NCBI GenBank assembly: GCA_951406725.2
Contig: OX597815.1
Span: 156,426,001-156,490,000 of the forward strand
From: Octopus vulgaris
Lineage: Eukaryota
Reading direction: 5' to 3'
Length of the DNA stretch: 64,000 nucleotides
The translations under genes were made by a program, and so were the position numbers. Of this stretch, positions 13,245-64,000 are shown in pieces. Numbering within the stretch: the first letter of the stretch is position 1; the number at the start of each line of letters is the position of its first letter. The notes beneath the pieces are model-generated. The model was not told where the DNA came from and did no database searches. It saw only the letters and a program-made list of their open reading frames with translations.

Positions 13245-13645
13245 TAGTTTATATATAGAGGGCATTATTATACATACATGCCACACGCTAAGAAGGACAA
13301 AATTAGTCATTTCTACCAAAAATTTTACTAATCCCACCGAATGCAATATATGTAATATATATATTACCGGATGTAATATATGTAAACTCACCCATGTGCT
13401 TCGTTGATGTTGATCAGTTAGCTGCTCGGCTTAGACGAGGTAGGGTCGTTTATTTATGATACATTCAGGCTTGCTGATGAATACAGAGGTATGAAATCAC
13501 AGGTGATACAAGTCTATATTTTTAAATGTCTTACTTTGAAAAATTGCATTCGGTGGGATTAGTAAAATTTTTGGTAGAAATGACTAATTTTGTCCCTCTT
13601 AGCGTGTGGCATGTATGTATAATAATGCCCTCTATATATAAACTA
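13245..13645 (+). mobile_element. Foldback element: about 103-bp inverted repeats (13245-13347 / 13543-13645) around an HHR-containing spacer, next to (TA)n
   Basis: The arms are near-exact reverse complements. Confidence 0.9.
13467..13515 (+). ncRNA. Type I hammerhead ribozyme
   Basis: AGGCTTG-CTGATGA-ATAC(agag)GTAT-GAAA-TCAC(ag)GTGA-TA-CAAGTCT. 7-bp helix I, intact core, AUA cleavage triplet with predicted cut after 13508. Confidence 0.85.
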
Positions 13646-13989
13646 ATATGTTCAATAAGAAAGAATTATTTTCGAAATTTTTTCTCATGAGGTCTTTCAC
13701 GCTATCTACCTGATAATTTCTTGTTAAGTTTTCCTTATTAAGAAGTTGTCCTTAATTGCTAAATTTATATATATATATATATATATATATATATATATAT
13801 ATATATATATATATATATATATATAAGAACATTTCTCGTAAAGTTTTTTTTTCATTCAATAATGCTTTTGTGTGTGTGCGCACGCGTTATGGCACAATAA
13901 ATTATGTGAAGGGAATGGAGACAAGAATACGAATACTGAACAAGTGATGCTGGGGCATAGCCACAGTCCTATTACTGAAGGGTTTAGTC

Positions 13990-14533
13990 CAATGGTTCTT
14001 AACCGGGGTACATATGGCCTCTGAGGGTTCATATAAGATTTTGGGGGCCTCAGAATAGTATTTTAAGGGAGCCTGAAAGAGTTTTATTTTAGGTGTAACT
14101 ATTGGTATGTATTCATTTCTACTCTAGGCATAAGGCCCGATATTTTGGGGGAAGGGGCCAGTCGGTTAGATCGACACCAGTATGCAACTGGTACTTAATT
14201 TATCGACCCCGAAAGCATAAAAGGCAAAGTAGACCTCGGCGAAATTTGAACTCAGAACATAAAGACAGACGAATACCGCTAAGCATTTTCCCCGGCGTTC
14301 TAAGGTTTATGTCAGATCACTGCCGATGTATCGGTATGTATTGGAAGAAACAGCTAGGTTTCTTCCTCTAGCATTTCACATAGTTCAACCTGAACAAGGT
14401 AATGTGAGAAAAACAAAAGAGGAATTTTGAAAGAAGTTTGTATTGAATGGTTATTTTCTGGGCATGGGGTCCACTAGAATAAAATAATAATCAAAGGGGA
14501 CCATAGATAAAAACAAATGGTTGAGAAACCCTG
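13990..14533. mobile_element. hAT-type MITE with a nested SINE
   Basis: TIR-like ends CAATGGTTCTTAACC / GGTTGAGAAACCCTG, flanked by 8-bp near-TSD GTTTAGTC / GTTTACTC. Confidence 0.7.
14112..14325 (-). mobile_element. tRNA-derived SINE with a Meta-domain-like core (family C)
   Basis: Minus strand GAGTTCAAATT..CTTTGCCTTT.ATGCTTTCGGGGTCGATAAATTAAGTACC. Plus-strand copy at 56578-56752. Confidence 0.7.
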
Positions 14534-15071
14534 GTTTACTCGAACAAATGAACTACAGTACGTAAACTTTTTCAAATCCGGTGCTTATTCTATCCGTCAC
14601 GTTTACTGCATAGCTAAATTACGGGAATGTAAACAAAGTAACAGCGCGGTCAAACAGCGAAACGCACGCACGCACGCTCGCACACGCACATGTACACACA
14701 CACACATACACACACACACACACGTAGGTTGGCGTGTATGCGCATGTGTATATGTAAGCGTATGAGTATGTGTGCATCTGTATAACTCTCTCTTTTCTCT
14801 TCTGTAATATCGAATTTGCTCATCTTTCACCCAAATTATCTGTGCTGCTCCTGATTATTCACTAAATATAACCGCTTCATCCAAAGGAAACACTCGTATT
14901 ACTTAAATTCTCTGTCTGAAGAACTTCCTTACATGTCTCACTAACATGTGAAACTGTAATTCTAATTCCTCTTAGCAAATGAAATATGTATAATTGTGAA
15001 TATATGATACCAATAAATTTTCCAACTTCCTGTTTTATATATGTGCATATATATACATATATATAGAAAAG

Positions 15072-15460
15072 AAATCTCTGAGCGAGGTATAAACAGTAGC
15101 TGCATGATATCGTGAAGGATATTTGCCACTTAAATGTGGCTAACCCTTAAGGGTGGATGCTACTGTAGCTTGTAGCCCCAGGAGGACACCTCCTCCAGCT
15201 GGCTATTGACACACTTTGTGCCCTATCAGTATTTGCAAAGGGAAGTCATCCTTCCAATCTCCAGCCTGACAGGATACACACGGACCCGGGATTCTGATTA
15301 TTAACCCGTCATCAGCGTATGACAACCACCAGTTGGCGATGTGAAGTGGTTCCAAATGCAGATGTATATATCCTTTTTCTAGTGATGAAAAACCACTGAT
15401 CTCGAAAACGTGGAAACAAGCAAAAATAAATCTCTGAGCGAGGTACAAGCAGTAGCTGGA
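15072..15460 (-). mobile_element. HHR-bearing non-coding element: about 356-bp unit plus about 33-bp terminal direct repeat (same family as 60506-60874)
   Basis: AAATCTCTGAGCGAGGTA occurs at 15072 and 15428. Minus-strand HHR at about 15278-15320 has GAAA changed to GAAT. Confidence 0.75.
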
Positions 15461-15474
15461 AGAGATATGTATAT

Positions 15475-15858
15475 ATCATGGTTTATAATAGTTCAAAAGA
15501 AAGTAGATGGAGATATAGCATTTAATAAAAACTTATTATCTGCAAATATCAAGCATATTTCCTTACAGCTGTTTCAGTTAAGCCAAAAAGATTAAATAGA
15601 AAGTATTAAAATCATTCTATCAGGCAAAATCTCTTCAGAGGCGTAGAAAAAAGATATACCGTTAGGTTTTTTATGTCATTTTTTTCTACCCCTCTGAAGA
15701 GATTTTACCTAATATAATGATTTTAACAATTGCTATTTAATCTGTTAGGCTTAATTGAAACAGTTGTAAGGGACTATATTTGGTTTTGCAGATAAGTTTT
15801 TTATTAAATGCTATATCTCCATTTTCTTACTTTCTTTTCAATGATTATAAACCATGAT
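15475..15858. mobile_element. Diverged foldback element with one HHR in each arm
   Basis: Arms are imperfect reverse complements centred near 15665. Plus-strand HHR CCCT-CTGAAGA...GAAA-CAGTTG-TA-AGGG at 15690-15772. Minus-strand HHR at 15561-15641 has CAGCTG. Confidence 0.8.
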
Positions 15859-61860: not shown

Positions 61861-62310
61861 TTATTGCTTATTTAGCTTGGGTTCGAATTTATCAATAAAA
61901 TTCTTTTCTCTGATTTTCCTCTCGATTTCACTTGGGCTGTGTAATTTGTAGAATGGAAATATTATATATATTTTCCGACCACATGTTGCTAGGTGGTTAC
62001 TCAAAGGTATCTGACGGACCTCTGGGTCTCTAATCTGTTGCCGGTGTACACGTGAGCGTTCTAATAGTGCGTTTCCCGTCTGACCTACATATATTTCTTC
62101 ACAATTTGGGCATTTGATGCAGTAAATTAAATTTCTGCTTTTGCAGTTCATATTCGCGTTTGTGAATATTTTCCCGGTTTTTGTGTTTATATATTGACCG
62201 GTATGTATGAATTGGCATGTGCCACATCGGCTATCATTGCATTTAGATACCGTGAATGTTTGGTCTTTGTTGCTGAGGTCAAATTTTGCCTTTGTTAGTA
62301 ATGTTTTCAA
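61861..62310 (-). CDS. PLE GIY-YIG endonuclease domain ORF (left arm, transposon-derived, 5'-truncated)
   Basis: KCNDSRCGTC..NLIYCIKCPNCEEIYVGQTG..R..H. A 1-nt insertion upstream shortens it relative to the right arm. Confidence 0.6.
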   Translation of the reverse strand: MKTLLTKAKFDLSNKDQTFTVSKCNDSRCGTCQFIHTGQYINTKTGKIFTNANMNCKSRNLIYCIKCPNCEEIYVGQTGNALLERSRVHRQQIRDPEVRQIPLSNHLATCGRKIYIIFPFYKLHSPSEIERKIREKNFIDKFEPKLNKQ

Positions 62311-62446
62311 GTTTTTTAGGCTGTCTTTTACTAAGCACCATAGCTCGATCCTTGATTATGTCTTTTAATTCATTACTTTGGGCAATGATTGGTAGGTTTG
62401 CTTTGCCCAAAGTAATGAATTAAAAGACATAATCAAGGATCGAGCT

Positions 62447-62926
62447 ATGGTGCTTAGTAAAAGACAGCCTAAAAACTTGAAAACATTACTAACAAAGGCA
62501 AAATTTGACCTCAGCAACAAAGACCAAACATTCACGGTATCTAAATGCAATGATAGCCGATGTGGCACATGCCAATTCATACATACCGGTCAATATATAA
62601 ACACAAAAACCGGGAAAATATTCACAAACGCGAATATGAACTGCAAAAGCAGAAATTTAATTTACTGCATCAAATGCCCAAATTGTGAAGAAATATATGT
62701 AGGTCAGACGGGAAACGCACTATTAGAACGCTCACGTGTACACCGGCAACAGATTAGAGACCCAGAGGTCCGTCAGATACCTTTGAGTAACCACCTAGCA
62801 ACATGTGGTCGGAAAATATATATAATATTTCCATTCTACAAATTACACAGCCCAAGTGAAATCGAGAGGAAAATCAGAGAAAAGAATTTTATTGATAAAT
62901 TCGAACCCAAGCTAAATAAGCAATAA
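62447..62926 (+). CDS. PLE GIY-YIG endonuclease domain ORF (right arm, 159 aa, transposon-derived, 5'-truncated)
   Basis: Open frame from an ATG to the native stop, with the same motifs as 20537-21121. Expression is unknown. Confidence 0.65.
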   Translation: MVLSKRQPKNLKTLLTKAKFDLSNKDQTFTVSKCNDSRCGTCQFIHTGQYINTKTGKIFTNANMNCKSRNLIYCIKCPNCEEIYVGQTGNALLERSRVHRQQIRDPEVRQIPLSNHLATCGRKIYIIFPFYKLHSPSEIERKIREKNFIDKFEPKLNKQ

Positions 62927-63420
62927 TAATAATACTTAGAGGTATTACTTCCACTGCTACGACCATGACCACTAACAACAACAACAATACTAAAGGTGAT
63001 CAAGACGAAGATAGCAGGAAAATTATCTTATTTAGGGTTAAAAGTTCTATTGCCACCACCATCACCACTAGCAACAATAATTAAGGTGCTGACAATGATG
63101 ATGATGACAATTGAAATATAAAAATATAAAAATCTCTCACAAAGGATATTTACAACATTTCTAAAAATAACCCAACAATTGCTGCTTCGGCCAGGGTCAA
63201 GATACAGGACTCTTGACCTGTCCAACAAAGCGTGATGCCTAAACCAATCAGCTCAACCAACCAATCAGCTTAAGTAATTGAGTGATACTACACACTGATT
63301 GGTCAGAATACAGTTTGCAAAACCTAGCACTCTGGAGCCTACCCAGCTGTATTTATAGCACAGAATCACTCATCTTGCTACAGTCAAAAATTGTGAAGCA
63401 TGACTGTCAACACTACTACA

Positions 63421-63465
63421 TGAACCCGAAGATTGCAGAATTCAATGCATGAAAGTACTAGTTCA
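63421..63465 (+). ncRNA. pLTR hammerhead with a core mutation (CCGAAGA)
   Basis: TGAAC-CCGAAGA-tTGCA...TGCAt-GAAA-GTAC-TA-GTTCA. The U4-to-C change probably impairs activity. Confidence 0.7.
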
Positions 63466-64000
63466 ATCAGAATGAATATTTAACATTCTACTATTTCATT
63501 TTATTTTATTCAATTATAATATATTATCTTATAATATATCATTATAAGATTGTAAATAAAACGTGAAAATCAGACAAGGTTGGAATTCTTTTTATTATAT
63601 ATATATATATATATATATATATATGTGTGTGTGTGTGTGTGTGTGTATATAGTTAATCCAAACATGAAAACACAAAGAGAAAACACAACGCGAGGACGTG
63701 GAACAAGTATAGTGTTATTGGACGGTCAGGAAAGGAAAGAAAGAAGGAGAATTTAATGTTTGGAGCGGAGCACTTGGTCAGAAACATTGGATAAGGAAAG
63801 ATCCAAGCAAGGGATCCGTTAAGTTGCGGGAAATAAGCAAATCAATAACAGTTATCCAGCGGTGTTGGGTAGACAAACACAGACACAAAGTGACACACGT
63901 ACGAAGGTATATACGGGCTTCCACGCAGTTCCACTCACAGGGCACTGCTCTACTCGAGGCTATCGTAGAAGACACTTTCCCGATGTTCCACTAAATAAGA

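Follow-up and report, generated by a model that had tools for sequence, protein, structure and literature searches.

This locus raises the question of how seven inserts in a stretch of the Octopus vulgaris genome came to share one layout, and whether one enzymatic machinery put them there. The stretch analysed, called the window here, comprises 64,000 nt of contig OX597815.1 (assembly GCA_951406725.2), and the inserts are labelled E1 to E7. The first-pass annotation had proposed that one machinery, possibly that of the Penelope-like element (PLE) family encoded in the window, moves all of them. The reading that we favour, with a probability of roughly two in three, is that they are hammerhead-bearing retroelement inserts of six sequence families with a Penelope-type layout, and that the RT/GIY-YIG proteins of several PLE families, not of one, placed them in (TA)n tracts that were already there.

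All seven inserts are present where they had been placed, and arm alignment confirmed an inverted duplication at one end of each (7 of 7), with arm identities of 88-100%. Five (E1, E2, E3, E5, E6) are protein-free, and E4 and E7 are coding PLE fragments with a GIY-YIG domain and RT similarity, so the earlier description of all the elements as non-coding does not hold. E1 (13247-13765; 106 of 107 aligned arm bases match) has a 72-nt TA tract at its left end and a minus-strand inverted arm (13247-13347, a copy of 13543-13645), followed by a plus-strand sense unit of 418 nt without a long frame (13348-13765). A type I hammerhead occupies 13468-13514 of this unit, with cleavage predicted after 13508, and the unit ends in a 120-nt tail (13646-13765), after which comes a 60-nt TA tract. 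E2 (15466-15979, plus strand; 162 of 183) is an older near-palindrome, the arms of which (15466-15652 and 15680-15867) each contain a degenerate hammerhead and are separated by a 27-nt spacer; a 112-nt tail and then a 54-nt TA tract follow. E3 (18676-19465; 289 of 291) has a 44-nt TA tract on its left, a minus-strand arm (18676-18963) that starts at an internal ATATAT and carries its own hammerhead copy, and a plus-strand sense unit of 502 nt (18964-19465; predicted cut after 19198) with a 94-nt tail and then a 30-nt TA tract. In E5 (58528-60466; 63 of 64) a 36-nt TA tract on the left is followed by a minus-strand arm of only 63 nt (58528-58590), 3 extra bases at the joint, and a plus-strand array (58594-60466) of 3.7 copies of a non-coding unit, units 1-3 being identical, with a 42-nt TA tract at the end; there is one hammerhead per unit (predicted cuts after 58697, 59203, 59709 and 60215). 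E6 (60509-60873; 82 of 90) consists of a minus-strand tail-less arm of 239 nt (60509-60747), which has the hammerhead inside it (predicted cut after 60682) and is longer than the plus-strand tail-bearing arm of 126 nt (60748-60873), which lacks a hammerhead and has a 36-nt tail and then a 14-nt TA tract. The description of each insert as an inverted partial copy plus a sense hammerhead unit thus fails for E6, whose hammerhead is in the inverted arm, the one without a tail.

The arm never reaches the far end of the element. It stops short by 120, 112, 94, 26, 150, 36 and 26 nt in E1 to E7 respectively, so that a one-sided tail is left in 7 of 7, and the tails fall in two length groups, 26-36 nt (E4, E6, E7) and 94-150 nt (E1, E2, E3, E5). 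Arm length ranges from 63 to about 1190 nt, the flanks are not mirror images, and the arms of E2, E4 and E6 diverge by 4-12%. In the available portions of two studies of PLEs, the signature of these elements is an inverted 5′-truncated copy at the 5′ end together with a one-sided tail, of 30-40 nt (PMC8557442, PMC3846280), and the match to it in the inverted arm and the one-sidedness of the tail supports the PLE-type integration suggested at first. It may be noted that a long inverted arm is missing from two more hammerhead inserts, at 15066-15460 and at 31860-32087, which leaves arms in 7 of 9 clear cases. Also, the inner joints vary, with a 3-nt overlap in E7, none in E6 and the 3 extra bases in E5, and therefore do not indicate a single joining route. 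The tail-less arm of E6 holds 149 nt that are missing from the tail-bearing arm, and so it is not a simple fold-back copy of the latter.

E4 (19852-22939; 323 of 337 aligned arm bases match) and E7 (61254-63597; 1102 of 1102, gaps aside) belong, on the features of their sequence, to the canonical EN+ PLEs of the Neptune/Nematis group. The body of E4 (19852-22605, minus strand) is a 5′-truncated, frameshifted PLE with RT, a CX4CxxC linker and, at its C terminus, GIY-YIG with CCHH; its 3′ pLTR hammerhead lies on the same strand (predicted cut after 20016), the 26-nt tail occupies 19852-19877, and the inverted pLTR (22606-22939, plus strand), which has its hammerhead at 22791, stops at an internal ATATAT. 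E7, also 5′-truncated, has a minus-strand tail-bearing arm (61254-62405) made of the PLE GIY-YIG end and a 3′ pLTR with clustered small deletions, with a 26-nt tail and a 38-nt TA tract on the left, and a plus-strand tail-less arm (62403-63597) with a core-mutated hammerhead near 63426 and a 28-nt TA tract on the right. A stump of the same family (31860-32087, minus strand) has kept its hammerhead intact, begins at the internal site where E4 also starts and has only a 10-nt fold-back at its 5′ joint; in all, three E4-family copies begin at an identical internal site. GIY-YIG (PF01541) was matched in protein P0001 and in the E7 frame. The RT fragments of E4 itself gave no Pfam match, but by tblastn E4 aligns to residues 32-729 of P0004, a relative with RVT_1, in five segments with changing frames and identities of 59-72%. 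In P0001 the CCHH motif comprises CPNC inside the GIY-YIG core and then H175 and H192, the equivalent columns being invariant in 14 aligned proteins, and the CX2-5CxxC linker between RT and EN is CNDSRCGTC at residue 110; the authors of PMC8557442, from which the definition of the linker is taken, and of PMC3846280 connect this type of linker with a microsatellite bias.

A type I hammerhead descriptor run on the window gave 11 motif loci against a mean of 0.27 in 30 shuffles, and these fall in E1, E3, E4, E5 (all four units) and E6 and in the copy at 32054. Rfam found no hammerhead in the window at its gathering score, nor in 13000-23100 at E<=10. The claim of seven hammerhead-bearing inserts stands for these five and needs qualification for two, as the core of E7 is CCGAAGA in both arms with the motif partly deleted in the left arm, and E2, missed by the descriptor, has a weak stem I with core, stem II and a palindromic stem III present. 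Stem III is a perfect palindrome in E4, E5 and E6, and hammerheads with such a stem III would cut as dimers in tandem transcripts. Stem II insertions are long (30-50 nt) in E2, E3 and E5.

One account of the non-coding inserts is that they are heavily 5′-truncated stumps of other autonomous PLE families, with no mobilisation in trans. The stump at 31860-32087 shows that such remnants exist, E1 and E2 are single-copy in the window, and opposite-strand hammerhead pairs 100-700 bp apart, already noted for minimal PLE hammerheads, are ascribed to truncated PLEs in the available part of PMC4209133. Yet E5 is a head-to-tail array, the 506-nt unit of which (GC 0.33) has a longest stop-free frame of 104 codons, and its unit-to-unit joint was found in public contigs of 4 of 4 runs. 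E3 is a monomer of about one unit in the same phase, homologous to the E5 unit along its whole length (about 500 nt; z=8 to 10). A second copy of the E6 family (E6b, 15066-15460, minus strand), which has no inverted arm, consists of a unit of about 360 nt followed by the start of a second, tandem unit. E5 and its relative E3 are non-coding tandem-unit elements. As a general explanation the stump account is therefore unlikely, though it may apply to E1 and E2; E1, E2 and E6 may be retrozyme-type units or stumps of unseen coding families.

The proposal of a single machinery can be put in its strongest form by supposing that every non-coding element is moved in trans by the E4/E7 family, which would recognise the structure of the RNA and not its sequence. 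Layout and target are common to all inserts, the E4/E7 clade ends at TA in other loci, and the 36-nt tail of E6 is near the 26 nt of E4 and E7. Against this, the coding copies in the window are broken, tails are 94-150 nt in E1, E2, E3 and E5, and the 3′ sequence is not shared: the last 130 nt of E4/E7 are not matched by E1, E2, E3, E5 or E6, the 3′ ends of E3 and E5 being alike. The best score of a non-coding insert against the E4/E7 3′ end was that of E3 with E4 (z=3.0, in an AT-rich patch), other pairs being about null, and it is this lack of similarity, set beside the z of E3 with E5, that argues for several drivers. Further TA-seeking PLE clades, Naiad and Hydra, are known (PMC8557442), and for a rotifer no evidence of cross-mobilisation between families is reported (PMC3846280), as far as the available text of these papers goes. 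The units also gave no significant match to the pLTRs of 31 related loci. We hence consider a single driver improbable, and this part of the first-pass annotation is not supported. Against the reading with several families it counts that no intact coding partner was seen in the window for any non-coding family.

On taking an insert end as TA-adjacent when no more than 3 nt separate it from a pure TA tract at least 12 nt long, 12 of the 14 ends qualified, against a per-end background of 0.6% (1.7% within 10 nt; roughly 2% of positions taken at random), and in 5 of 7 inserts TA borders the element on both sides. The statement that all inserts abut TA-rich sequence is correct except for the tail end of E4, which adjoins (ATAG)n, and the left end of E2, which adjoins another element. 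No target-site duplication is visible outside TA tracts at the 14 ends, as had been noted, though a TA tract would hide one. In the window, TA adjacency was also seen at SINE ends (8 of 24) and in the control set (14 of 36 ends); Fisher p was 0.001-0.008 for insert ends against all SINE ends, with the qualification that several ends share one tract and are thus not independent. Compared with young SINE ends (8 of 15; copies at least 80% alike to the reference copy, a subset chosen afterwards) the difference is not significant (p=0.11). The flanks are therefore richer in TA than random sites and SINE ends as a whole, but not demonstrably richer than those of young SINEs, and some of the TA signal may reflect a general accumulation in such tracts.

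It is on this ground that one may suppose no specific targeting at all, the TA tracts gathering or keeping insertions of every kind, or growing after insertion from the TA-like ends of the elements. TA tracts of at least 12 nt make up 4.8% of the window, and the TA-like arm starts and the E5 tail end could seed slippage. However, E4 split a SINE: its flanks (left half 19499-19851, no strand assigned, the internal microsatellite being extended by (AG)n(ATAG)n; right half 22937-23110) match consecutive halves of the uninterrupted copies 8176-8602 and 33817-34161 and meet at the internal microsatellite of the SINE, in the TA tract of which the inverted pLTR ends. The target of E4 therefore predated the insert, and E4 is the one insert for which pre-existence is established. 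Also, related PLEs from other samples were compared at 22 loci where the sequence continues for 250 nt or more downstream. In 10 of them (TA)5+ lies 165-507 nt beyond the ORF, compared with 1 such tract in 17,780 nt of other flank; in the remaining 12 a downstream TA tract is missing, and L020, the single locus with an inverted arm, shows no TA next to this arm. The TA on both sides of most inserts also speaks against the absence of targeting, which moreover leaves the arm-plus-tail layout unexplained, and we regard it as very unlikely. A (TA)n preference of the inserts, as first suggested, is supported by the E4 target, by the relatives and by the linker type. Scarcely credible is that the inserts are DNA transposons or MITEs with TIRs and a TA target, or that the arms are fold-back assembly artefacts, for although a TA tract would conceal a duplication of the 2 nt TA and E7 combines arms free of substitutions over 1072 aligned bases with clustered small deletions in one of them, the variable arms that stop 26-150 nt short, the unlike flanks, the divergence between arms and the RT of the coding members are not what such origins would leave.

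For integration by several PLE families we propose the following course. The PLE nuclease would cut both strands of a TA tract, and each free end would prime DNA synthesis on the RNA of the element, at either of two sites that are favoured within its 3′ region. The distal site would set the tail end; the proximal site, 26-150 nt upstream, would be TA-like and able to pair with the self-complementary target. Head-to-head joining of the two 5′-truncated products would then yield an inverted arm without a tail. In E2 and E7, the arms of which end almost together, the second arm perhaps arose by fold-back self-priming. E3 and E5 would be retrozyme-type non-autonomous units mobilised in trans, E5 likely having been inserted as a ready-made multimer. 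Alternating-TA runs at six arm starts measure 2, 8, 6, 6, 2 and 2 nt (p=2e-5 in a comparison with random positions in the same units), just 2 nt thus being found in 3 of 6. In public contigs, (TA)n at 59374, which aligns with the E3 arm start, is the best or joint-best supported loose end of the E5 unit (15, 15 and 7 contigs in three runs and 1 in the fourth). The arm start of E5 itself, where the TA run measures just 2 nt, lies 70 nt upstream of this main TA junction of the family, which counts against the scheme. Summed contig depth, which is not copy number, falls 3- to 5-fold after the tail end at 59456 in three runs. Outside the window one opposite-strand joint was found, in one contig, contigs being poorly suited to show inversions. 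More specifically, and tentatively, protein-free retrozyme RNAs, as monomers or ready-made multimers, might be integrated by PLE proteins through double-ended priming in which both cut (TA)n ends pair with conserved TA-like RNA start sites, the 3′ module of about 95 nt common to E3 and E5 being the recognition signal of an unseen long-tailed PLE family.

E4, E7 and the copy at 31860 fit fully the Neptune/Nematis-type C-terminal-endonuclease PLEs as described in the available text of Craig et al. 2021 (PMC8557442) and Arkhipova et al. 2013 (PMC3846280): RT with C-terminal GIY-YIG, CCHH, the linker, a pLTR hammerhead, 5′ truncation, an inverted truncated 5′ copy, a short one-sided tail, and a microsatellite bias that hides TSDs. 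The non-coding inserts differ from them in lacking an ORF and, in four cases, in tails well beyond the published length. In vitro, the two target strands are each cut and extended by a PLE protein, PAc (Poseidon of Anolis carolinensis; Frangieh et al. 2024, PMC11167929), with two internal starts bounding the tail and an AT-rich target, the likeness in strand cutting being one that we infer. The PAc start, in contrast, lies in an AC-rich stem-loop that has no homology to the cut DNA, which counts against the pairing proposed here. The type I core, the short or palindromic helix III and the presumed dimeric action recall the minimal PLE hammerheads of Cervera and de la Pena 2014 (PMC4209133, available part), from which the long stem II insertions depart.

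Animal non-LTR retrozymes have been proposed as non-autonomous PLE partners (Cervera and de la Pena 2020, PMC7229834; Li et al. 2026, bioRxiv 10.64898/2026.07.22.740005), and in the accessible text of both the argument is from co-occurrence and pLTR homology. The octopus units resemble these retrozymes in being low-GC (25-45%), non-coding and 310-510 nt long, with a type I hammerhead, and in occurring as monomers or tandem arrays; they differ in that E1, E2, E3, E5 and E6 have no pLTR homologue among the related loci. As far as the same accessible text goes, inverted arms, tails and (TA)n targets are not described for retrozyme inserts, the word "inverted" occurs zero times in the 2020 paper, and the 2026 preprint invokes local amplification for arrays. 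Layout and TA preference being already known for PLEs, these results are confirmation rather than surprise, the long tails and the TA-like start sites being new details. The scar, comprising inverted arm, one-sided tail, fixed internal start and microsatellite target, is specific to PLEs, and its presence on hammerhead units that have no ORF, a tandem array among them, is evidence from structure, other than co-occurrence or pLTR homology, that retrozymes integrate in the PLE way; the inserts also give concrete RNA substrates and start sites for the existing in vitro PLE assay. If the proposed double-ended priming is true, the insertion scar would allow retrozymes to be assigned to PLE machinery independently of their sequence, and target choice would be guided partly by RNA-DNA pairing.

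An inverted duplication at one end of seven inserts had been described in the first-pass annotation, and self-BLAST with pairwise alignment recovered the arms in all of them: E1 (13247-13765; 106 matches over 107 aligned positions), E2 (15466-15979; 162/183), E3 (18676-19465; 289/291), E4 (19852-22939; 323/337), E5 (58528-60466; 63/64), E6 (60509-60873; 82/90) and E7 (61254-63597; 1102/1102). E4 and E7 are fragments of a coding Penelope-like element (PLE), the remaining five are non-coding, and E5 is an array of a 506-nt unit. A feature not spelled out earlier is a one-sided shortfall of the arm, which ends 120, 112, 94, 26, 150, 36 and 26 nt (E1 to E7, respectively) before the far end and leaves a 3′ tail; the arm start is referred to here as the proximal site and the tail end as the distal site. 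A terminal-inverted-repeat layout was rejected on this ground. The available parts of PMC8557442, PMC3846280 and PMC8969392 give an inverted 5′-truncated copy, with an optional tail of 30-40 nt at one end, as a usual feature of PLE insertions. The layout is real and is this known PLE scar, present here also on ORF-less units of retrozyme type, and the longer tails and the TA-like start sites are new details. It may be noted that the left arm of E7 shows no substitution over 1072 bases aligned to the right arm, but carries at 61400-61540 about a dozen clustered small deletions, hammerhead included; these could stem from a consensus error within a perfect 1.1-kb palindrome or be genuine deletions driven by a hairpin. 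Two unrelated pairs of inverted arms of about 30 nt (26533-26646 and 32132-32239, 93-97% alike) have a TA tract as the loop, with TA inside and arms outside, the reverse of the E1-E7 layout.

The window is AT-rich and packed with microsatellites, and 99 pure TA tracts of at least 12 nt make up 4.8% of it. Twelve of the 14 ends of E1-E7 lie within 3 nt of such a tract (10 of 14 for tracts of at least 20 nt), against a background per end of 0.4-2.6% over the settings tried. The claim that all seven abut TA-rich sequence thus stands except at the left end of E2, where a second E6-family copy lacking the inverted arm (E6b, 15066-15460) separates it from a short TA run, and at the tail end of E4, which meets (ATAG)n. 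Among 36 termini of other window repeats, hand-chosen as family ends, 14 adjoined TA, among them 8 of the 24 ends of SINEs, which we take to resemble octopus SINEs (Fisher p 0.001-0.008 over settings, with several ends sharing one TA tract). Flanks no richer in TA than those of SINEs had been named beforehand as counting against the reading, and overall the E1-E7 ends are richer (12/14 against 8/24). All eight TA-adjoining SINE ends come from copies that match a reference copy at 80% or more, and against that subset, picked afterwards (8 of 15 at TA), p was 0.11. TA tracts of the window collect many kinds of repeat. Region 17420-23110 is a nested pile-up linked via TA tracts, comprising a LINE 3′ end, a presumably Helitron-like element, E3, a SINE half, E4 and the other SINE half. 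An LTR-type element at 35982-38618, with 554-nt direct repeats 96% alike, has no TA flanks, and of two DNA-transposon-type inverted-repeat elements among the controls (41079-41385 and 32900-33760) the longer has TA at one end.

As noted in the first pass, the inserts lack an obvious target-site duplication: none is visible outside TA at the E1-E7 ends, and one inside TA would be hidden. For E4 the left flank matches a SINE copy at 8181-8420 (191/221) and the right flank continues at 8422-8595 (156/174); a second uninterrupted copy at 33817-34161 is likewise matched. Since the flanks are consecutive parts of an uninterrupted SINE, E4 split its internal microsatellite, and in this one case the target predated the insert. 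The (AG)n(ATAG)33 at the tail end of E4 (19714-19851), absent from both uninterrupted copies, may be a later expansion or a repeat added during priming.

At six arm starts an alternating-TA run of 2, 8, 6, 6, 2 and 2 nt lies inside the element, more than at random positions of the same units (p=2e-5), and one arm-start site is common to three E4-family copies. An anole PLE protein in vitro cuts and extends both strands, with two internal starts bounding a tail (PMC11167929, available part). We propose that priming would occur from the two ends of a cut TA tract, at the distal site for one and the proximal site for the other, after which the truncated products would join head to head. We infer a pairing between target and start site, unlike the anole start, which is reported there as not homologous to the cut DNA. 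E6 needs two primings because its tail-less arm holds 149 nt missing from the tail-bearing arm, and a simple fold-back origin of all arms was rejected on this evidence. Fold-back self-priming, proposed for palindromic junctions (PMC3846280, in part), would also fit E2 and E7, with spacers of 27 and 23 nt, and the 10-nt inversion in the short E4/E7-family stump ending at 32087. The inner joints of the three elements checked follow no common micro-homology rule: E7 has a 3-nt overlap, E6 none and E5 three extra bases.

Rfam found no hammerhead match in the window, and a custom type I descriptor was therefore used, which yielded 11 motif loci where 30 shuffled windows averaged 0.27. These lie in E1, both arms of E3, both arms of E4, four places in E5, E6 (in the tail-less arm) and the copy at 32054. 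The E2 motif fails the descriptor on stem I, and E7 has the core CCGAAGA in both arms, the left-arm copy being partly deleted. E4, E5 and E6 have a perfectly palindromic stem III, and in E1, E2 and E3 it is almost so; such a stem is reported for dimer-acting PLE hammerheads in the available part of PMC4209133, where opposite-strand pairs 100-700 bp apart are ascribed to truncated PLEs. These hammerheads are putative self-cleaving motifs. Three copies of another element (46483-46700, 63646-63815 and 44304-44361) end beside TA runs without inverted arms, the longer two with a decayed minimal hammerhead containing GAAACG. A repeat pair at 39840-40036 and 12690-12858, adjoined by TA runs, has a hammerhead-like motif with U replacing A6 of the core in both. 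A conserved block lies upstream of the hammerhead in both E3 and E5 (18970-19050 and 59500-59575), with the words CGCGCCA and CATTTGAAA, which we assume to be E2F/CHR-like; the block is possibly a candidate promoter. In the E4 pLTR, CCAAT and TATA-like words precede the hammerhead.

The E5 unit occurs in 20 of 24 runs among the matches listed (9 studies, four organism codes), none of them listed as RNA, and an exact 27-nt pattern gave no match in metagenome contigs. When contigs of four runs were compared with one unit, the head-to-tail joint was found in all four; one run was only guessed to be RNA, so its unit-joint contig is evidence of neither transcription nor a circle. In each of the three large runs, (TA)n after 59374 is the best or joint-best supported loose end, with 15, 15 and 7 contigs (a single one in the fourth run), among 24 loose ends displayed with 301 more beyond, and since identical junctions collapse in contigs these are not copy counts. 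Weaker TA-like loose ends follow 59464-59469, and summed contig depth drops 3- to 5-fold past 59456, the end of the window's array. Position 59374 aligns with the E3 arm start, and a proximal site some 90-95 nt ahead of the tail end is therefore common to both families; the arm start of E5 itself, 70 nt further upstream, is atypical. An opposite-strand joint appears in one contig among the loose ends displayed, so the inversion is documented for the window, and contigs, which collapse repeats, are a poor guide to its spread across the genome.

The endonuclease encoded in the window has a CCHH motif and a CNDSRCGTC linker, which by the definition in PMC8557442 places it with Neptune/Nematis; the available part of that paper hypothesises the linker as mediator of the Neptune microsatellite bias. 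Of 31 related loci fetched, 24 matched as far as the C-terminus, and for 22 of the 24 the downstream sequence was 250 nt or longer. Ten of the 22 have a (TA)5+ tract 165-507 nt past the ORF and 12 have none downstream; the remaining flanking sequence, 17,780 nt in all, holds a single such tract. Only one locus among the 22 has an inverted arm, without TA there. At another locus the 3′ copy (3818-3971) meets (TA)23 where the tandem 5′ copy (1-112) goes on with TATAT, the same TA-like start as in the window.

The first-pass annotation had further suggested that one machinery, possibly the family in the window, moves all these inserts. E4 can be matched to residues 32-729 of a relative of 729 aa through five segments that change frame, and E7 holds the last 150-175 residues only, twice, so judged from these frames neither is able to make the protein. 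Non-coding inserts have a longest stop-free frame of 54-104 codons and 25-45% GC. When eight sequences were compared over the stretch between cut site and 3′ end, significance was reached only by E3-E5 (z=8), E4-E7 and E6-E6b; no non-coding insert matched E4/E7 significantly. E3 and E5 align over the whole unit of about 500 nt (z=10.5), and E3 is therefore a single copy, in monomer form, of a unit related to that of the E5 array. A 3′ end shared by E1, E2, E3 and E5, suggestive in a four-way alignment, was reduced to E3-E5 by shuffle tests, and an E1-E3 likeness (z=2.8 once) was rejected. When eight window units were compared by BLAST with the 31 loci, pLTRs included, every match was short and AT-rich, the best (E3 with locus L008, 78% over 50 nt) lying inside an opposite-strand ORF, and all were treated as chance.

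Animal hammerhead repeats are suggested to be non-autonomous PLE partners (PMC7229834), a partnership argued elsewhere from co-occurrence and pLTR trees (bioRxiv 10.64898/2026.07.22.740005), both as far as the available text goes. In the accessible part of an octopus repeat annotation with recently active Penelope families (PMC13282606) the word 'hammerhead' occurs nowhere. Our search, with Repbase, Dfam, most subscription papers and supplements outside it, found no literature on retrozyme arms, tails or (TA)n targets. According to the available part of PMC3846280, there is no sign that the PLE families of a rotifer mobilise one another, and that of PMC8557442 describes further TA-seeking clades, among them the Naiads, which occur in cephalopods. 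A single driver from the family in the window is accordingly improbable, and because the 3′ ends are unmatched and given these two sources, the shared layout is read as the mark of a common enzyme class and not of one enzyme. We put at roughly two in three the probability that several PLE families integrated E1-E7 into (TA)n by the PLE-type route.
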